From the IMG/VR virus record IMGVR_UViG_3300014257_000015, positions 1 to 64,000 of that record: a DNA stretch of 64,000 nucleotides; one strand, written 5' to 3'. Made by a program: the position numbers and the translations under genes. Of this stretch, positions 3,845 to 55,258 are shown in pieces. Position 1 is the first letter of the stretch. Every line of letters starts with the position of its first letter. Below the pieces are notes generated by a model, which did not search any database, had not been told where the DNA came from, and was given only the letters and a program-made list of their open reading frames with translations. Source of the DNA: a virus.

Positions 3845-4306
3845 ATGTCAGAGAAAGTTGCTGTCGAAATCTTGGTGCAGAAGGCCATCACGCTGATGAG
3901 CGGCGAGTCGCTGTACCAATATGAAGAGAATTTGCGAAACGCCGCGCGTGATGTGGTGAAACGAAAGTACAACTTGGCCAATGACGACGGGTCATACATG
4001 GCCGAAGTTTACGACGGCGCATCAATTTGGTCAGTGTACAAGAAAAACGAAAGCCCACCACACCAGTACATCATGATCGAGCACACCCGGGATGAAAACG
4101 GGAATTTCAAGTTTGGAGGCTCGATGAAGGTGAAACGCACCACCAAATATGAACCAGTTGGTGCGGTAGCAAAAGTCACGAAAGGTCGCTGGATCGAGGC
4201 CGAGGCGTCATCCAAAGAGTCGACAAAGAGCGATGAAGGTTCCACCGAGAAAGAGTGTGGTAAAGAGCGCGCTGTCAAAAAGGACTTTTGGAACGGCGTG
4301 TTTTGA
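3845..4306 (+). CDS. Hypothetical protein (head module)
   Basis: AGGAGA RBS, 153 aa. Confidence 0.65.
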   Translation: MSEKVAVEILVQKAITLMSGESLYQYEENLRNAARDVVKRKYNLANDDGSYMAEVYDGASIWSVYKKNESPPHQYIMIEHTRDENGNFKFGGSMKVKRTTKYEPVGAVAKVTKGRWIEAEASSKESTKSDEGSTEKECGKERAVKKDFWNGVF

Positions 4307-4314
4307 GGTGATCC

Positions 4315-5409
4315 ATGCCGTCAATAGCCAGAGGCCAAGCCAACACACAGTACATTCTCAACTGGTTTTTGACAGTCGGGGGAGTGCTAACAGACGCATA
4401 TGCTGTTGAGTATCGTATCCTTGACATAACCGGAGGGTTGCCAGGAACACAGGTGTTTCCGACTGTCGCGGGGACGTGGGAGGATGTGTCAAGCGGCGAC
4501 GGACACTTTGCCACAGGCTCGTACTATGCATATGACAACGCGCTGGCAGACGGGTGGACGTCTGCTGCCGCCGAACCAATTGGCACACATCGAATCGAAT
4601 GGCGATGGAAGTACATTGCCACTTCGGCGTATGTCTCCGGGTTTGAAGACTTTGACGTCAAATCAAGTTCAAGTCCAGATTTGTATATATCGCTGTCGGA
4701 CGTTCGCGCCGAGGGGCTTGATTCCACGGTAGCAGACGACGCCAAGGTGATGGCCGCCATCGAGCTTTGGCAGGCGATCATTGAGAGGGCGTGTCGACAA
4801 TGGTTCAATCCAAGAACGCTAATTTTGAAGGCTGATGGAACCGATTCGGACGCACTTCACTTCGGGGTTCCCATCATAGACATCGAATACCTGAAACTCA
4901 ATAACTCATCCGACGAGTTAGACACGGGGTTGTATCGGGTGTACAACAGCCGATCATATCCCGATGATCGTCGAAACCCGAGGATCAAACTGATTGGTTC
5001 TGAACGAGCGGATATTTACACGGCACCGTTGTGCAGCCGTCTTCGATTCGCGAAGGGACGGCAGAACCAAGAGATCAAAGGAACATTCGGTTTCACCGAA
5101 GAGGATGGAAGCACACCATTGCCAATAAAGAGGGCATTGTTATTGTTGGTGATCGAAAAATTGACAAAGCCGCCGTACCCGGGGAGTTCAACAACGGTCA
5201 CTCCTCCAGCAATTATTGGTGGAATCATCGAAGAGCAAACAGACGAACACCGGATCAGATATGGCGGCGCAGCGAGTACCACAGGCAAGATATCCGACCG
5301 AAGGCCAGGGCTGTCAGGGATAACAGCCAATCAAGAAATCCTAGACATCATCAAATTGTACAGAGCGCCGATCGGAATAGCCACCCCAGCCCATACGAGT
5401 CTTCAATGA
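4315..5409 (+). CDS. Head-tail adaptor/connector with N-terminal extension
   Basis: YISLSDVRAEG…IIERACRQWF…GTFGF…TPLPIKRALLLL motif series of connectors; GAGGTGA RBS. Confidence 0.7.
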   Translation: MPSIARGQANTQYILNWFLTVGGVLTDAYAVEYRILDITGGLPGTQVFPTVAGTWEDVSSGDGHFATGSYYAYDNALADGWTSAAAEPIGTHRIEWRWKYIATSAYVSGFEDFDVKSSSSPDLYISLSDVRAEGLDSTVADDAKVMAAIELWQAIIERACRQWFNPRTLILKADGTDSDALHFGVPIIDIEYLKLNNSSDELDTGLYRVYNSRSYPDDRRNPRIKLIGSERADIYTAPLCSRLRFAKGRQNQEIKGTFGFTEEDGSTPLPIKRALLLLVIEKLTKPPYPGSSTTVTPPAIIGGIIEEQTDEHRIRYGGAASTTGKISDRRPGLSGITANQEILDIIKLYRAPIGIATPAHTSLQ

Positions 5410-47784: not shown

Positions 47785-48724
47785 GCCGAAAGTCACATTG
47801 CTGACTTGGACGAAAGACCCGTTGGAAACTGTGTACTCTGTATGGTGGCAGTCGAAGAACGAAAAACCGTTGATGACACCGGATGAGGTGAAAGAAAATG
47901 TCCCGCCGTCTGAGGTCGAAGAGCTATTCAAAGCGGTAATAGCACAACGAATCCCTGTTGGAGAACACCTGGATTTCGTGTTTGTTATGGAGAACGTTTC
48001 TGTGTCTTGGCGTGAGCAGGCCGTTCGCCACCGCATCGGGGTGAAAGTAGGCGGCGAACGTTTAGGGGTGGACGTAATACCGAACCTGGCTGATTCAAGC
48101 TGGTGGTCACAATCCATGCGCATCCAGAATATGGGAAGTTTCTTCAGCAACGGCGCATACAGGATGCCAAAATCATTGGATGCTCACCCGGAAGCTAAAG
48201 CTGTTTTTTGCGACATCATGTGTGACATCGAGGCTGCGTACAATAATCTGATTGACATGGGTGTGCCGATGGAAGACGCCAGAGAGGTTATCCCACTCGG
48301 CGCGCAACATCGGATCAGCTGGAAGCTTAACATAGGCGCTCTCCAGCACATCATGGAAAAGAGAGGTTGCTGGATACTGCAACTTGGAACGTGGGGGCCG
48401 ATCATTACCGGGATGGTGGATGAGTTGGCCAACAAGGTTCACCCTGTGTTTCGCGAATTGGTGACGCCGCCTTGCATCCGAGGGGATAAATTCAACTCGT
48501 GTGTGTTCATGGAAGAGTGTCGCCGCCGTTTGACAGGTGATGATGAATTGCCACCGTGCCCACTCCACTACAACTACCACGTTCTGCCTGAATCGCAACG
48601 TGGAATGATTCCGCTGTTGGTCAAGAAATTGGAAATCCCGATGAAGTCGGAGATGATGCGACGGTCGGAAGATTATGCGAATTTTTGGGGCCGAGATCCG
48701 TTCACAGGTGAAAAAATTGTGTGA
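47777..48724 (+). CDS. ThyX-like flavin-dependent thymidylate synthase (divergent)
   Basis: EQAVRHR…SWWSQSMR; EDAREVIP; H..EKRGC. Confidence 0.8.
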   Translation: MAEPKVTLLTWTKDPLETVYSVWWQSKNEKPLMTPDEVKENVPPSEVEELFKAVIAQRIPVGEHLDFVFVMENVSVSWREQAVRHRIGVKVGGERLGVDVIPNLADSSWWSQSMRIQNMGSFFSNGAYRMPKSLDAHPEAKAVFCDIMCDIEAAYNNLIDMGVPMEDAREVIPLGAQHRISWKLNIGALQHIMEKRGCWILQLGTWGPIITGMVDELANKVHPVFRELVTPPCIRGDKFNSCVFMEECRRRLTGDDELPPCPLHYNYHVLPESQRGMIPLLVKKLEIPMKSEMMRRSEDYANFWGRDPFTGEKIV

Positions 48725-49301
48725 CAAGATAATCGTGTTGGACGGGGTGAATGGGACAGGGAAATCAACGAGCGCAAAAGTTCTGCGCGAATTGACAGGG
48801 TGGCCCATCATACGGGCGTTTCGTGATGACTCTGATTCACATCTAGGATACAACGCGCCTATGGAGGGAGAACTCAAAAAACTCGGCGTTCCTGTGAACA
48901 CATACGTTGATGACTTGTACGTTGCTGATTTTTTGCGCGCAACACGGCGAGGAGCGATATTGGATAGATCGATGCCATCGGCATTGGCATATCCGATGAT
49001 GCGCGGCGAAGAGATAACACCAAAGACAGCAAAAAAATTGGTTGTTGTTTGGGAGCAGATTCTGCGCGCTGCGAAGATACCTGTGGTTTATGTTTGGATG
49101 CAAGCATCGCACGAAGTGGTGAAAGAGCGTTGTGTTGGACGGTGGCATCCAAACAAAGCACAATACGCCAAATTGGAATCGACTTTCAAGAGAGTTTTCG
49201 TGACGTTGTCGCTGTGCAAAAGAAGAGTGGTGACCACAGAGCTTAGTGAAAACGAAACGATCAAAACCGTTCGCCAGGTGGTGGATGATGCCGACGATTG
49301 A
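48717..49301 (+). CDS. dNMP (thymidylate-like) kinase
   Basis: LDGVNGTGKST P-loop; ILDRSMPS..AY; TTG start after AGGTGA. Confidence 0.8.
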   Translation: MCDKIIVLDGVNGTGKSTSAKVLRELTGWPIIRAFRDDSDSHLGYNAPMEGELKKLGVPVNTYVDDLYVADFLRATRRGAILDRSMPSALAYPMMRGEEITPKTAKKLVVVWEQILRAAKIPVVYVWMQASHEVVKERCVGRWHPNKAQYAKLESTFKRVFVTLSLCKRRVVTTELSENETIKTVRQVVDDADD

Positions 49302-49620
49302 TGAAATCAGAGTTTGGTTGAGTGGCCAAGAGATCGAAGGATTGCCCGCTTTGCGTGAGCGTGAGCGTGAGCCAGAAGCGAAACATCCGCCGAAGGCAAT
49401 GAAAACGCCTGCCGATATGCGCAACCAAGGGAGATATCGGCTGCACCGTGATGACTCCGGTCACGTCATCGATGCCACTTTGTATTTTGGAAAGTACAAT
49501 GGGTTCTGCCTAAGTAAACTTTCAACCAATAGAGAAGGGAAGGACTACCTGTCATGGATGTTGAAACAGGACTTCCCTGGTGAATTGGTGGAGTTGATCA
49601 CCAGTATGGGATGGGCGTGA
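49285..49620 (+). CDS. Small protein with FGKY.G (ExoX C-terminal-like) motif
   Basis: LYFGKYNG…DYLSWML. Confidence 0.6.
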   Translation: MMPTIDEIRVWLSGQEIEGLPALREREREPEAKHPPKAMKTPADMRNQGRYRLHRDDSGHVIDATLYFGKYNGFCLSKLSTNREGKDYLSWMLKQDFPGELVELITSMGWA

Positions 49621-52600
49621 TGGAAGACTTTGTAGGGTTGCACAACCATTCGGATGCTAGCCAACTAGACGGTGCTGGGAAAATATCCGAATACATCAAG
49701 GCCGTAGTCGAACGCAAGGCGCCTTCAATCGCTTTCACCGAACACGGGACAATGCGCGGGTACCAGACGCAATATGATCAATGCAAAGAACACAACATCA
49801 AGCCAATTTATGGGATTGAATTCTATGTGGCCAATGACATGCGTCGAAAGGGCCTAACCGAAGACGAGCGCGCGGACATCACGAAAGGCAAACCTCGAAG
49901 CGAGCACAAAGATGCCATCAAGAAGTATGAAGAGCAACACGGCATCCGAGACAGATGGCATTTGACGTGCTGGGCGAAGAACGCAGAGGGAATGCGGAAT
50001 ATGATGCGCTTGGCGTCGCTTGCATACACCGAGGGGTTCTACTACAAGCCGCGCATTGACTTGAACGAACTGTACAAGTACAAAGAGGGGTTGGTGGTGG
50101 CGACGGGATGTTGTTCCAGCGTCATCTATGACAGGGCCGTGTTGGGGAAAAAGAAGCTTGCATTAGAAATTGCCGATGAGATGCGTGAACAATTTGGGGA
50201 AGATTTGTGGATTGAGATACAACCGCACGCAATCGAAGAGCAGGTGATCTCCAACCAGTTGGCACTGGAATTGAAGGATAGGTGGGGGAAGAAGGCGCGC
50301 CTGCTTGCAACGCAAGACGCACATTATGTCAGGCCGGAAGATTGGGAAACGCATGAAGTGATGCTCTGTATCGGAACCAATGATGTGATGAGCAACCCCG
50401 AGCGTTTTCGTTTCACCGGGAATGATTTTCATTTCAAAACCCGAAAGGAAATGTTTGCGAAGTTCAGATCAACACACGCTTACTTGACCAGAGAGCAAGT
50501 CAAAGAATCTTTGGACAACACGTTGGTGTTCATGGACACAATATCTGATGGCCTGGTTACCATCGATAAAGACAAGTGTCTCATGCCACCAATACCGGTT
50601 CCTGAGAAGTATGACGGCAATGAGTTCGCATACTTGAAGGATTTGTGTTTGCGCGGTTGGGCATGGCGTGACATACCGGCCCGCGCCACTCTGTTGTCAA
50701 AGCGCGAGGGCGGCGACGAAGCAGAATGGCTGAAACGATACGTGGCAAGGTTGAAAAGAGAACTGACAGCAATCAAAAGCCAAAAGTTTGTTTCATATTT
50801 CCTTCTTGTTCACGATTTATACAATTGGGTGCGCCAGCAGGAAATCATGTGTGGGCCTGGACGAGGCTCAGCGGCGGGTTCGCTCGTTGCATACCTGACC
50901 GGCATCACATCGGTTGATCCGATAGAGCACAATCTGTTGTTCGAACGATTCATAAGCCCAACGCGTGTCGACCAGCCCGATATTGATATGGACTTTGAGG
51001 ATCGGCGCCGACAAGAGATCATCGAGTATCTGCGAAACAAATACGGCAATGATAAGGTGTGTCAGATTGCCACCGTAGGCAAGCTTTCGGGGAAGGCTGT
51101 AATCAGAGACATATCGCGTGTTCTTGAAGTGCCGTATGCAGCAGTAAACCAAGTCACCAATTCCATCATCGAAAGAAGCAGCGGCGACGAGCGGGCCAGC
51201 CAGACGGTTGAGGACTCTTTCAAAGAATTCAAGGTGTGTCGCGAATTCAACGCCAAATACCCGGATGTTCTGAGATATGCGAAGAAGCTCGAAGGAATGG
51301 CCAAGACGCTTGGAATACACGCAGCAGGCGTCGTGACTTCTCCTGAACCGTTGATGAATCTTGTCCCATTGGAGACGAGAAAGCATGATGGCCGTGACGT
51401 TGTGGTGAGCGCCATCGATATGTACGGGGTGGCAGCGTGTGGGTTGCTGAAATTGGACGTTCTTGGGCTGCGAACGCTGAGTGTCATTCGTGAATGTCTA
51501 GAAGCAGTTGAACAACACACTGGTGAAAAGATCGACCTCGAACGCATTGATTTGAATTTGAAAGACGTTCTTCAAGGATTCACAGATCACGATTATTGTG
51601 GCGTGTTTCAGTATGATTCCCCGGGTGCCGACAAGATTTGCACAGGCGTTGAGTTCAAACACTTCGAGGACATCGCTGCCATGACAGCGTTGAATCGACC
51701 GGGCACCGCGCGAAGCGGCCTAGCCACGCAATATGTGGCACGAAAGCGCAACCCGAAATTGGTTGAAAAGGCATCGTTTCACCCAGCGGTGAGTGAAATC
51801 ACGAAAGACACATTGGGAATCATCGTGTATCAAGAGCACGTGATGCGTATTTTCACCGACATAGCCGGGTTTGCCCCAGCAACGGCGGACAGCTTGCGCA
51901 AGAAAATAGCCAAAAAATTTGGCGATGAGACGATTGGAAAAGAACGCGAGAATTTCATTAAGGGTGCGATGGAAAATTGGGGTGACCGAGGGATGACCAA
52001 AGAGATCGCAGGAAAGATAATGGATGCGATCACGTTCTTTGGATGTATACCTGGTGAATCGTTGGTTTTAGTGGTCGAGGGAAGTGATGAAGACTTGTGC
52101 GCATTGCGAGAGGAAAGTGTTGGCAAGGGGATTGTGCTCAATACACTACCAGAGGGAATACAGGAAGGAAAGAACGGTGATCGGGAATCCTGTGAGTTCA
52201 GAGCACAACAAGATAGGGGTGCTTGGGCGCGGGTGGAAGTCAGCGCCTGGGGCGAGGGTCATTGCGTCGAACAAGTTGCAATCCAAGAAGATAACAGGGG
52301 CATTAAATCCGTCTTGGAAGGGCGGACACATCAAAAACTTCAAACTAGCAAGGAACAGGTTGTTGAAGGAAGAGAAGGGATGTTGTCGTTGCGGCACTTC
52401 GTTGATCAAGGGATCAGGGCCGAATCAAAAGTCATTTCACATCCACCACAAGAATCGAAACAAAGCGGACAACCGAGAAGAGAACTTGGAAGTGCTGTGT
52501 CAAAGTTGCCACAGCAAAGAACACACGAAAGAAAAAATTGCTGGGCGACTTGGAAAGAAATCGAAACGCTAAAGGTTGGTGATTGGATAGTGTCTTTTGA

Positions 52601-54371
52601 TGACGACATTCGCCCCGAGCTAAATAGAGTGAAAAGAATAGAGTGCACAGGGGTGAAGCCTGTCCGCAGGATGACACTCGAACAAGGCGAAATTTGGGCG
52701 ACCGGATCGCATTGGTGGATGAATAGCACAGGGGAATATATAGAGACAAAGGATTGCACGCCTGGTACAGAATTGCGTGTTGGTGATTCGATTTTCAAGG
52801 TTCTTGGTAATCGAAAAGATGGGCGATTGAAGACTTGGGACTTGGAGTGCGAATTCGAACCTAGCAACTATGCCGTCAGATTATTCAACAGCGATTCGTG
52901 TAATTACTTGATAAGCCATAATAGTTATGGATTCAACAAGTCGCATGCCACCGCATATGGAATCATCGCGTATTGGGAAATGTTCTTGAAAATACGCCAC
53001 CCGATCGAATTCTATTGGGCGCTATTGAAGAACGAACCTGACCGAATACGAATCCAACAGATCGCTAAAGATGCTAAAAAACATGGCATAGAATTGTTGC
53101 CGCCGTCGGTGGTGAATAGCGGTAAGCATTTCACAATAGACAGAGCAAATAATGCCATTCGTGGTTCGCTCGTCGACATCAAGGGCGTAGGTGATGCTGC
53201 GTCTGAATCAATCATGGTCGCCCAACCATACAAGGACTTCGGTGACTTGATTCAACGCGTGGACCGCCGAAAAGTACACAAGGGTGTCATTGTGGCATTG
53301 GCGAAGGCCGGGGCGTTAGATGACGTGGTGCCGAATCCTAAGTGGCTGATAGAAAACATCGAAGATTTTTGGACAGAGTTGGGGAAGAAGGGGTGGACAG
53401 AGAAAACAGAAAGATTGTTGCGAGATTCGGCTGATGCTCCGCAGTTCACCACCGAAGAGAGGCAGGTTGTGGCCTCGAAGGTTAGTCCACTCGCATTCGG
53501 GAAACATCCGCTCGATGCGTATGCGAATTTCATGGAACGTAGTGTGAAGGTTCCCATCGCGGCAATGTCTGATGAAGACTTTTTCAAAGACAATGACAAT
53601 CAAGGCGTATTCATCGCTGGCGTCGTTGTTGAGGTGAAGTACAATCAAATTGGAGATTTCAACACAGGTGAGCTTCCCAGTGAGTTGGAAAGGAAACAGA
53701 TGTTCTGGGGCCGCCGTTACGCCAATGTTAATGTCGAAGATCTTGGCGGGAAACAAAATAGGATCAAAGTGGATTTTGACATCTTTGATGATTATCGAGA
53801 TGTGGTTGATTCTGGAATAGGAACGCCTGTTGTTCTTCATGCTTTTGTGAACGCGAGGTTTGAGAATTTACGTTGTCATTTCATGATCAATCTGGAAGAG
53901 TACAGGCTAGCAGTCGAAGCAGGACAAGAGTTGACAGTGTGGCAAAGCATAGTCGCTGGTCGCCATCCAGCCAAAGAATATGAATGGAAAGATCCGTCAA
54001 AGTTGATCAAATACAAGACCCCAGAGGGCGAAGAGCGCGAGGTGAAAAGGCGTTCCAATGCAATCAGGAACAAAGCATTTTGGGATCGCGTATCACCTTC
54101 GTTTGTTGGCGTTGTCACGCACGTTCGGCCAAAATATGACAAGAATGGAAACCGGATGGCATTCTTGGGATTGCTGGACGGTGGTTCGCGATTCATCAGC
54201 GTGATAGCATTCGCATCCAGTTGGACAAAAGAAGTGCGACGTGTTTTGAAACCCGGGGCGTTGGTGAAAATAGAATTGGACTCCAAAAGAGACAAACGCA
54301 GTTGGTCATATTTCTACAACGGCGGAAAACTCAGGGTTCTGAGGTCAGCGCCATCAACCACATCACCATAG
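49611..54371 (+). CDS. dnaE: DNA polymerase III alpha subunit, intein-containing
   Basis: PHP domain (HNHS..S.LDG, TEHG, GIE, DAH); GRGSAAGS; PDIDMDF; HAAG; K.D.LGL; YQE; YGFNKSHA; OB folds. Confidence 0.96.
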   Translation: MGVMEDFVGLHNHSDASQLDGAGKISEYIKAVVERKAPSIAFTEHGTMRGYQTQYDQCKEHNIKPIYGIEFYVANDMRRKGLTEDERADITKGKPRSEHKDAIKKYEEQHGIRDRWHLTCWAKNAEGMRNMMRLASLAYTEGFYYKPRIDLNELYKYKEGLVVATGCCSSVIYDRAVLGKKKLALEIADEMREQFGEDLWIEIQPHAIEEQVISNQLALELKDRWGKKARLLATQDAHYVRPEDWETHEVMLCIGTNDVMSNPERFRFTGNDFHFKTRKEMFAKFRSTHAYLTREQVKESLDNTLVFMDTISDGLVTIDKDKCLMPPIPVPEKYDGNEFAYLKDLCLRGWAWRDIPARATLLSKREGGDEAEWLKRYVARLKRELTAIKSQKFVSYFLLVHDLYNWVRQQEIMCGPGRGSAAGSLVAYLTGITSVDPIEHNLLFERFISPTRVDQPDIDMDFEDRRRQEIIEYLRNKYGNDKVCQIATVGKLSGKAVIRDISRVLEVPYAAVNQVTNSIIERSSGDERASQTVEDSFKEFKVCREFNAKYPDVLRYAKKLEGMAKTLGIHAAGVVTSPEPLMNLVPLETRKHDGRDVVVSAIDMYGVAACGLLKLDVLGLRTLSVIRECLEAVEQHTGEKIDLERIDLNLKDVLQGFTDHDYCGVFQYDSPGADKICTGVEFKHFEDIAAMTALNRPGTARSGLATQYVARKRNPKLVEKASFHPAVSEITKDTLGIIVYQEHVMRIFTDIAGFAPATADSLRKKIAKKFGDETIGKERENFIKGAMENWGDRGMTKEIAGKIMDAITFFGCIPGESLVLVVEGSDEDLCALREESVGKGIVLNTLPEGIQEGKNGDRESCEFRAQQDRGAWARVEVSAWGEGHCVEQVAIQEDNRGIKSVLEGRTHQKLQTSKEQVVEGREGMLSLRHFVDQGIRAESKVISHPPQESKQSGQPRRELGSAVSKLPQQRTHERKNCWATWKEIETLKVGDWIVSFDDDIRPELNRVKRIECTGVKPVRRMTLEQGEIWATGSHWWMNSTGEYIETKDCTPGTELRVGDSIFKVLGNRKDGRLKTWDLECEFEPSNYAVRLFNSDSCNYLISHNSYGFNKSHATAYGIIAYWEMFLKIRHPIEFYWALLKNEPDRIRIQQIAKDAKKHGIELLPPSVVNSGKHFTIDRANNAIRGSLVDIKGVGDAASESIMVAQPYKDFGDLIQRVDRRKVHKGVIVALAKAGALDDVVPNPKWLIENIEDFWTELGKKGWTEKTERLLRDSADAPQFTTEERQVVASKVSPLAFGKHPLDAYANFMERSVKVPIAAMSDEDFFKDNDNQGVFIAGVVVEVKYNQIGDFNTGELPSELERKQMFWGRRYANVNVEDLGGKQNRIKVDFDIFDDYRDVVDSGIGTPVVLHAFVNARFENLRCHFMINLEEYRLAVEAGQELTVWQSIVAGRHPAKEYEWKDPSKLIKYKTPEGEEREVKRRSNAIRNKAFWDRVSPSFVGVVTHVRPKYDKNGNRMAFLGLLDGGSRFISVIAFASSWTKEVRRVLKPGALVKIELDSKRDKRSWSYFYNGGKLRVLRSAPSTTSP
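52044..52922 (+). mobile_element. Intein in DnaE (293 aa, precursor residues 812-1104)
   Basis: FFG|CIPGESLV (block A); IETLKVGD; ATGSH (block B TxxH); TWDLEC (block F); ISHN|S (block G); removal restores FFGSYGFNKSH. Confidence 0.93.
52084..52572 (+). CDS. HNH homing endonuclease nested in the intein in the +1 frame
   Basis: C..C…ARGLC..HY; NPSWKGG; CCRC…HIHHKNRNKADNREENLEVLCQSCHSKEH; GAGG RBS at 52077 before GTG 52084 / ATG 52087. Confidence 0.9.
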   Translation: MMKTCAHCERKVLARGLCSIHYQREYRKERTVIGNPVSSEHNKIGVLGRGWKSAPGARVIASNKLQSKKITGALNPSWKGGHIKNFKLARNRLLKEEKGCCRCGTSLIKGSGPNQKSFHIHHKNRNKADNREENLEVLCQSCHSKEHTKEKIAGRLGKKSKR

Positions 54372-54392: not shown

Positions 54393-54734
54393 ATGTCAAG
54401 TCTATTGACGGCGGCGAAACGGGCAGGGCTTCACCCGGCGCGATGCGAAAACTGCCACCGAAAAATAAACACAAAAGCAGCAGTCAAAGAACTGTTCAAC
54501 ACAATCATACAGATGTGTGCCGATGGCGAGGTGGTACGCATCGACAATTTTGGCGTTTTCAGACTTCGCCTCCACCAGGGACGCACCATTGAATCTTCAG
54601 TCCTGCCTGGTGGAAGGGCAGAATTTGAAGACAGGATGGTGTTGAGTTTTAGACAGAGTGTTGGCGTGAAGAATAGGCTGTCGAAGATCATCAAGGCCAA
54701 CAACAACAAGAAGGAAAGAAAGGGCAAAAAATGA
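54393..54734 (+). CDS. HU/IHF-like DNA-binding protein
   Basis: GEVVRIDNFGVF…GR…LSFRQS..VK. Confidence 0.8.
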   Translation: MSSLLTAAKRAGLHPARCENCHRKINTKAAVKELFNTIIQMCADGEVVRIDNFGVFRLRLHQGRTIESSVLPGGRAEFEDRMVLSFRQSVGVKNRLSKIIKANNNKKERKGKK

Positions 54735-55258
54735 GTTTTAGCCAAGTAGAGTTGGTGGTCAACGGCGACAAGGTTCAGGTGGACCTCGAAGAAATTCTGT
54801 CCATACAAGACATCAGCCGTGACATGGACCAAGTAGCCTCTCAGATGAGCTACTGGGGAGCGGTATGGGCGGCAGCCGACGAAGAAAGCCAGAGGGCTGA
54901 CGCGCACTATCGAAAGTGGCGAGCAGAGACTGGACAACGAATCCTATCAGCCAACGAGAAGACTGCTGAGTGGAAAGTGAAACAAGACATCGAGTCTGAT
55001 GAAACGTTCCTGAAGCTCAAATCTAGTCTTGCGCAAGCAGCACACAATGTCACACTAGCCAAAGCCATCTTCGAAGCATTCAAGATCAAGGCCAACATGC
55101 TTCAGTCCAAGGGTGCCATGGCACGAGCAGAGTTGGATTCAACTGGAATGGCCACGAAAGTCGAGGCGCCGAAGCGCAGCAGCGGCGAAGACGAAGAAAG
55201 GAAGCTGCGCGAGAAAGAAGAGATCGTGAAGCGCGCCTTGAAAAACAAGAAGAAATAA
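54731..55258 (+). CDS. UvsY-like recombination mediator (putative)
   Basis: All-helical, 175 aa; adjacent to SSB and RecA. Confidence 0.5.
   Translation: MSFSQVELVVNGDKVQVDLEEILSIQDISRDMDQVASQMSYWGAVWAAADEESQRADAHYRKWRAETGQRILSANEKTAEWKVKQDIESDETFLKLKSSLAQAAHNVTLAKAIFEAFKIKANMLQSKGAMARAELDSTGMATKVEAPKRSSGEDEERKLREKEEIVKRALKNKKK

Follow-up and report, generated by a model that had tools for sequence, protein, structure and literature searches.

We report on an intein in dnaE, the gene for the DNA polymerase III alpha subunit, of an uncultivated environmental phage with a 105-kb genome (IMG/VR record IMGVR_UViG_3300014257_000015; 105,429 bp, complete, with direct terminal repeats). The stretch analysed here, referred to as the window, comprises the first 64 kb (64,000 nucleotides, nt) of that record. 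Our results point, with a probability that we place at roughly 0.8, to a contiguous class-1 intein in this essential gene whose homing endonuclease is encoded by a separate gene overlapping the intein in the +1 frame. Both open reading frames (ORFs) are intact and under selection, and the same layout recurs in related phages; structure prediction assigns a Hint fold to the splicing domain and disorder to the polymerase-frame translation of the nuclease gene. From these observations we infer internal initiation of the nuclease, splicing competence of the intein, and the activity and target of the enzyme. The elements of the system are as follows, all on the + strand, with the hyphen in FFG-SYGFNKSH, FFG-SYGFN and VVHN-C marking the splice junction and pLDDT standing for predicted local distance difference test score.

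49611..54371, +: dnaE precursor ORF (DNA polymerase III alpha), intein included, 1586 amino acids (aa), from the ORF list and its translation
52044..52922, +: class-1 intein between Gly and Ser of FFG-SYGFNKSH, 293 codons, exactly 879 nt
52044..52082, +: block A, residues 1-13, from Cys1 to Gly13, first Hint strands (pLDDT 92-96)
52077..52080, +: GAGG, Shine-Dalgarno-like site 6 nt before the ATG at 52087, presumed to function in initiation
52083..52544, +: domain-free polymerase-frame filler of 154 codons with predicted disorder, -1 relative to the reading frame of the HNH gene
52087..52572, +: HNH homing-endonuclease gene in the +1 frame, running from the ATG for 161 codons before its TAA (a GTG at 52084 is an alternative start)
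52545..52922, +: remaining splicing domain, 126 codons, with block B, block F and terminal HN (from alignment A4 of seven inteins, pLDDT mostly >90 and Foldseek matches to mini-inteins)
52923..52946, +: start of the C-extein, Ser+1 of SYGFNKSH; together with 52020-52043, the presumed homing site after intein removal

Two overlapping genes in one unbroken intein

An initial annotation, made from the sequence of the window, had proposed that DnaE is broken at FFG-SYGFNKSH by a 293-aa intein with Cys1, a block-B TxxH motif and a terminal HN followed by Ser. The coordinates agree with this proposal, and so do ten intein-less alleles, two from related phage contigs (DnaE of 1297 and 1283 aa) and eight from metagenomes, in which DAITFFGSYGFNKSH, or a form of it that differs at one or two residues, is uninterrupted, so that the insertion is seen to be in frame and precise. 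Across 15 alleles, occupied as well as empty, the 16-residue junction motif is conserved (12 match that of the window exactly, and 4 differ from it by 1-2 substitutions away from the junction), its core FFG-SYGFN being invariant, with a DNA identity of 32-39 out of 48 positions. Block B corresponds to T220-G-S-H223 (52701-52712), the terminal residues H292-N293 are encoded at 52917-52922, and Ser+1 at 52923. In alignment A4, C1, Gly13, H223, H292 and N293 are invariant. An AlphaFold2 model of the intein frame, built on this seven-sequence alignment, predicts a Hint fold for the splicing domain (residues 1-20 and 165-293, pLDDT mostly >90). A Foldseek search with the model retrieves 4kl5, the Npu DnaE intein (E 2.2e-6; template modelling score 0.77 on the target; root-mean-square deviation 1.7 A), and 43 further matches at E <= 0.001 are almost all inteins or Hint-fold splicing domains, VidaL included.

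These observations bear on the proposal that the element no longer splices and that the polymerase works with a 293-residue insert, as has been suggested for the methylase insert of ShiLan. Out-of-frame HNH inserts that lack a splicing element do exist (PMC11855218), but in the window the catalytic intein residues are all kept, the Hint fold is predicted with high confidence, and the insert breaks a polymerase motif whose core does not vary among the 15 alleles. We regard loss of splicing as very unlikely. Two other architectures were considered and rejected: for a group I or group II intron carrying an HNH ORF, Rfam gives no match at E <= 1 in 51500-53500, the host frame is open and no space for a ribozyme is left outside the ORF; for a fractured gene with a split intein, dnaE is a single 1586-codon ORF with no polymerase-frame stop.

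The second ORF lies in the +1 frame, which is open for 166 codons, from a TAG at 52069-52071 to the TAA at 52570-52572. Its GAGG site is built from the Glu12-Gly13 codons of block A, and its TAA sits within the Leu-Lys codons of the conserved intein strand ETLKVGD, as had been noted before. The coordinates previously given for an intact HNH gene with a GAGG site and its own stop codon likewise hold, and the family assignment is borne out by profile searches: the product scores above the Pfam gathering thresholds both for HNH (PF01844, 26.8 bits, where 21.4 are required) and for HNH_3 (PF13392, 26.1 against 24.8) and matches more than 20 HNH families in PHROG, with a best E of 2.5e-10. It combines an N-terminal CxxC...C..HY finger with a C-terminal CxxC...HH...N...N...CxxCH core, in which C99, C102, H120, H121, N133, C138, C141 and H142 (numbered from the Met at 52087) are invariant in five homologues. 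The AlphaFold2 model of this product shows a strand-strand-helix arrangement at residues 118-160, as expected of a beta-beta-alpha-metal core, with a core pLDDT of 70-87. A scan of viral contigs with the HNH protein alone returned no match, and a phage DNA collection yielded nothing at the nucleotide level and, at the protein level, a single weak HNH match, in Xanthomonas phage DES1 (39%).

The nuclease could instead be made by programmed +1 frameshifting, as a fusion of the N-extein, the N-terminal intein part (IntN) and HNH, and such a scheme would draw on the fact that the HNH frame opens only 5 codons before the ATG, in a G-rich stretch, GAGGGAAG. It is, however, a scarcely credible alternative: an in-frame TAG (52069-52071) lies directly upstream, the ATG is preceded by a well-spaced GAGG and the relatives L005 and L068, described below, have stronger Shine-Dalgarno-like sites, no known shift-prone motif is seen, and a fusion of more than 800 aa would be an odd homing enzyme.

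In the polymerase frame, the nuclease gene is read as a motif-free filler bounded by the 13 residues of block A and the strand WKEIETLKVGD. The earlier description of some 154 residues lacking any recognisable motif agrees with our searches, which found no match in Pfam or PHROG and no homologue among 1.8 billion representative proteins; residues 37-160 of the AlphaFold2 intein-frame model have a pLDDT below 50.

Recurrence of the layout and selection by frame

Scans of viral and metagenome contigs recovered five further inteins at exactly this DnaE site, listed here with their positions on the respective contigs.

L005, 3937-4779: intein with a +1 HNH ORF homologous to that of the window
L012 (= L010; IMG/VR contigs of 105,469 and 78,231 bp), 3943-4929: intein with a different +1 HNH gene
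L064, 2583-3500: intein with a +1 HNH ORF homologous to that of the window
L068, 2625-3500: intein with a +1 HNH ORF homologous to that of the window
L072, 2610-3500: intein with a +1 HNH ORF homologous to that of the window

All five carry a complete +1 HNH ORF. The products of L005, L064, L068 and L072 are 42-54% identical to the HNH protein of the window, with every Cys, His and Asn of the motifs invariant, and the L012 gene (ATG at 4013, stop at 4574-4576) encodes two HNH_3 modules (E 2.2e-19) followed by a C-terminal CxxC...C..HY finger. Shine-Dalgarno-like sites precede the start codon in L005 (GGAGG-6 nt-ATG) and L068 (AGGAGG-5 nt-ATG). In L064, for which no clear site of this kind is seen, the candidate starts are at 2851 and 2863, and this intein has an additional 12-residue insertion directly before block F. 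Mini-inteins free of any insert occupy the same site in P0012 (141 aa) and L042 (154 aa). Among related phages, alleles with and without an intein are found side by side. This scattered distribution, together with the conserved junction, fits the homing of a mobile element.

A scan for the DNA pattern encoding AITFFGC gave mostly chance matches, with about 6 of 46 loci being true DnaE sites, and a word-indexed protein search with the intein frame returned nothing at 161-513 aa and, among DnaE-sized proteins, only the window's own cluster. Within that cluster, the DnaE P0006, from a 61-kb contig, is identical to that of the window (P0001) except for five consecutive residues, 1115-1119, which change from AYGII to EFDRV. 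This tract lies 11-15 residues past the C-terminal splice junction (at about 52953-52967 in the window) and could be a local variant or a conversion tract adjoining the homing site.

To assess the openness of the two frames, the HNH protein and its codon usage were kept and synonymous codons were permuted. The polymerase frame remained open in 3 of 100,000 shuffles, and in none of 20,000 when the test was repeated; the permuted genes contained about 7 polymerase-frame stops on average against none observed, and the third frame holds 9-10 stops. That both frames are stop-free for about 160 codons, as first noted, is confirmed and exceeds what chance provides. The signature can be read in the codons themselves, since a polymerase-frame stop arises where an HNH codon of the form NNT meets a next codon beginning with AA, AG or GA: T-ending codons stand before such codons in 0 of 57 instances, versus 23 of 103 elsewhere. 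Each such stop can be erased by a T-to-C change that is silent for HNH. This property, which follows from the genetic code, may explain why the +1 register is found at all six loci, given that host-frame stops are always erasable in this way. The five relatives behave alike under permutation, with 0 host-frame stops against 4-11 expected and a probability of an open frame of 0-0.006. In distant free-standing HNH relatives the other frames are closed, with open spans of 21-32 codons.

Pairwise comparison of five homologous cassettes separates the frames further, although synonymous differences (pS) are saturated and the ratios of nonsynonymous to synonymous differences (pN/pS) are accordingly rough. 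The HNH frame shows 41-61% amino-acid identity and a pN/pS of 0.30-0.61, the polymerase frame 16-32% identity and a pN/pS of 0.98-1.49, and the unread third frame, at 18-34% identity, resembles the polymerase frame, whose filler diverges in the manner of noncoding DNA. The contrast is the one predicted by the initial annotation, and these comparisons support purifying selection acting on the HNH frame, with stop avoidance as the only constraint apparent in the polymerase frame.

The same data weigh on the view that the HNH ORF is an intact-looking but disused relic, with selection acting only on the polymerase frame and the intein inherited vertically. In the HNH tree, the terminal branch of the window HNH (1.18) is the second-longest of the five homologues, exceeded only by L072, and searches of viral contigs and phage records brought up no close copy of the gene. 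The ORF is nonetheless complete, with all Cys, His and Asn residues of the family, the start codon and the Shine-Dalgarno-like site kept, and the pairwise pN/pS values involving the window HNH are themselves 0.30-0.61, whereas an unselected frame of 161 codons would soon gain stops. We consider a relic improbable. A sequencing or assembly artefact, in which two compensating indels would mask an in-frame HNH domain, is more remote still. The genome is a metagenome assembly, but cluster members recorded on about five contigs share one and the same 293-aa intein-frame sequence, and these contigs come from two pipelines, JGI/IMG and Logan; the same +1 offset occurs at five other loci from unrelated samples; stop avoidance would be pointless in a polymerase frame that is not read; and HNH has its own start, stop and Shine-Dalgarno-like site.

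Proposed mechanism and position of the nuclease gene

If the intein is contiguous and its endonuclease is encoded by a separate overlapping gene, ribosomes translating dnaE would read through the insert and produce a 154-residue disordered filler, looping out from the hairpin after residue 13. The Hint domain would fold around this loop, and splicing would remove intein and filler together, restoring the conserved FFG-SYGFNKSH motif of the polymerase. Separate initiation at GAGG/ATG 52087 in the +1 frame would yield an HNH nuclease of about 18 kDa, which presumably cuts the intein-less dnaE of co-infecting relatives, with repair copying the whole intein into the cut allele (homing).

Several points weigh against this scheme. 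The HNH model is of moderate confidence (mean pLDDT 63), and its Foldseek matches, nearly all of them HNH nucleases, include none that is significant (E >= 0.1). Clear Shine-Dalgarno-like sites are seen in only 3-4 of the six loci, and HNH output may be low because ribosomes translating dnaE cross the internal ribosome-binding site. On the side of the intein, Pfam intein models find no match in the window's intein frame, for which the support comes from motifs, alignment and predicted fold, and an insert as long as 154 residues, placed at residue 13, might make splicing slower or less effective. That the insert is tolerated is suggested by its persistence in an essential gene.

Alignment of the seven inteins reveals two insertion points. 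In L005, L064, L068 and L072 the cassette lies between block B and block F, the usual position of intein endonucleases. In the window and in L012 it is found away from that position, right after the invariant Gly13 of block A and before the strand x-I-x-x-L-K-x-G-D, and in both the HNH stop falls in the Leu-Lys codons of this strand. Residue 13 corresponds to the S1 site of split inteins. Engineered S1 split inteins have N-terminal fragments of 10-12 aa (PMC3620165), and the natural VidaL (IntN of 16 aa) and PolB16 (15 aa) are split right after strand beta2 (PMC13014065). The splicing domain of the window is closest to that of L012 (41%), and the presence of two unrelated nuclease genes at one unusual site points, as far as sequence comparison goes, to a permissive hot spot.

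A seventh overprinted case, with HNH at the canonical site, is probably represented by the metagenome protein P0010, whose host-frame filler aligns end to end with these inteins. The P0010 filler aligns to that of the window in swapped order relative to the splicing blocks, which fits a cassette that has changed place. This DnaE fragment of 1098 aa also opens with the tail of another, upstream intein (..VVHN-C), and some relatives therefore have two inteins in dnaE. Elsewhere in the metagenomes, a family-A DNA polymerase (P0009) and a terminase-like protein (P0011) carry two inteins each, with in-frame HNH-like motifs such as HHKN...N..L; these phage populations therefore harbour HNH inteins of both kinds, in-frame and out-of-frame.

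The initial annotation had envisaged a free-standing HNH gene that invaded the loop of a mini-intein, is translated separately and has its filler spliced out. Selection, predicted disorder and the Hint fold favour the latter parts of this account; a direct free-standing origin is not needed, because the closest relatives of this HNH (42-54% identity) already lie, as overprinted +1-frame genes, in sister DnaE inteins, where they occupy the canonical site. Judged by these relationships, relocation of a pre-adapted cassette appears at least as likely as direct capture of a free-standing gene. Trees of the five HNH proteins and of the seven splicing domains contain no supported branch, and the move may have gone from the canonical site to S1 or the reverse.

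A link to split inteins with short N-terminal fragments had also been suggested, and it is reasonable in that the insert occupies the S1 position (PMC13014065). More specifically, the window and L012 might represent an unbroken intermediate between a mini-intein and an S1 "atypically split" intein, an idea that we put forward tentatively and to which we give somewhat less than even odds. A single C-to-T change, silent for HNH, would end the polymerase frame where the gene is lodged, after the second strand of the Hint fold. Were the idea correct, the outcome would be an IntN of about 13-20 residues, a free-standing endonuclease gene and a C-terminal intein part (IntC), that is, a fractured layout of the VidaL type; S1 split sites would arise in the same manner as canonical S0 sites, set by the landing place of the endonuclease gene; and the family would supply natural inteins of the Cys1/Ser+1 type in which S1 accommodates an insert of 154 residues.

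Relation to known systems and genomic setting

The layout had initially been described as a third arrangement of intein and endonuclease, and this claim to novelty does not stand: contiguous inteins with an endonuclease gene in another frame or in antisense orientation have already been published (Gorbalenya 1998, as cited in the two preprints that follow; bioRxiv 10.1101/2025.01.02.630785; bioRxiv 10.64898/2026.09.14.751524). Full-text searches of the literature found no report of an out-of-frame HNH inside an intein, and none of an endonuclease gene that overlaps an unbroken intein at its S1 loop.

The closest parallel is provided by the non-canonical inteins of actinobacteriophages with out-of-frame or antisense homing endonucleases (Gosselin, Arsenault & Gogarten, bioRxiv 10.1101/2025.01.02.630785), which include an endonuclease VII-like gene in frame 3 and antisense LAGLIDADG and Vsr-like genes, the HNH examples being in-frame; the first antisense case is credited there to Gorbalenya 1998. 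As in the window, these are contiguous inteins of essential phage genes, polymerases among them, with an off-frame endonuclease and a featureless host-frame stretch, and the origin proposed for them is a free-standing phage endonuclease gene. Whereas all of them lie in the endonuclease region between the splicing blocks, the gene described here is a +1 HNH placed after block A, in the N-terminal half of the splicing domain.

In the cyanobacterial DnaX intein, a LAGLIDADG endonuclease is encoded in an overlapping +2 ORF (Phillips, DeSimone & Gogarten, bioRxiv 10.64898/2026.09.14.751524; Gorbalenya 1998, as cited there). The shared features are a Shine-Dalgarno-like site before the overlapping ORF, a disordered in-frame segment, a ratio of nonsynonymous to synonymous substitution rates (dN/dS) that is low for the endonuclease reading and elevated for the host reading, and the coexistence of mini-intein and empty alleles; a secondary invasion of a mini-intein has been proposed as its origin. 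The nuclease family, host gene and organism differ, and the DnaX overlap lies between the N-terminal and the C-terminal splicing domain and not at S1.

Hidden HNH genes of the ShiLan type occur in phage DNA methylases that have neither intein nor intron (Arsenault et al. 2025, PMC11855218). They too are out of frame within a stop-free host frame, start a few codons into the insert and end with a TAA at its very end. In that system the host protein retains the filler and a ribosome-binding site was not detected, whereas here the filler belongs to an intein and should be removed with it by splicing.

Fractured genes, in which an endonuclease gene separates the halves of a split intein (Dassa et al. 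2009, PMC2677866), resemble the window in that the endonuclease gene interrupts the intein of a phage replication gene, at a residue (13) that corresponds to S1 as used by VidaL and PolB16 (PMC13014065). At 15 loci in that study, as here, the 3' end of the endonuclease gene overlaps the downstream intein part (PMC2677866). In contrast to fractured genes, dnaE of the window is one unbroken ORF with no stop after IntN and no restart for IntC, and splicing would therefore be in cis.

Against this background, the inteins described here add an HNH-class, +1-frame phage DnaE family to the few published inteins with an overlapping endonuclease gene, and they strengthen the view that in intein origins the splicing domain came first and the endonuclease invaded later. 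They indicate that long disordered inserts at S1 are apparently compatible with a natural Hint domain in an essential gene, and they constitute plausible unbroken precursors of split inteins with short N-terminal fragments, which are tools for protein semisynthesis. In practical terms, gene callers miss nested nuclease genes of this kind and label the filler as polymerase sequence.

The dnaE gene lies in the nucleotide-metabolism and replication block of the window, and Pfam recognises PHP, DNA_pol3_alpha NTPase, finger and HHH_6 domains in its product. An ORF at 49246-49620 that overlaps the start of dnaE and the end of the gene upstream of it gave no match. The neighbouring genes are listed below.

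48675-49301: thymidylate kinase-like gene upstream of dnaE (PHROG 761), the one whose end is overlapped by the ORF just mentioned
54393-55258: downstream of dnaE, a small DNA-binding protein (PHROG 379) and an unknown protein

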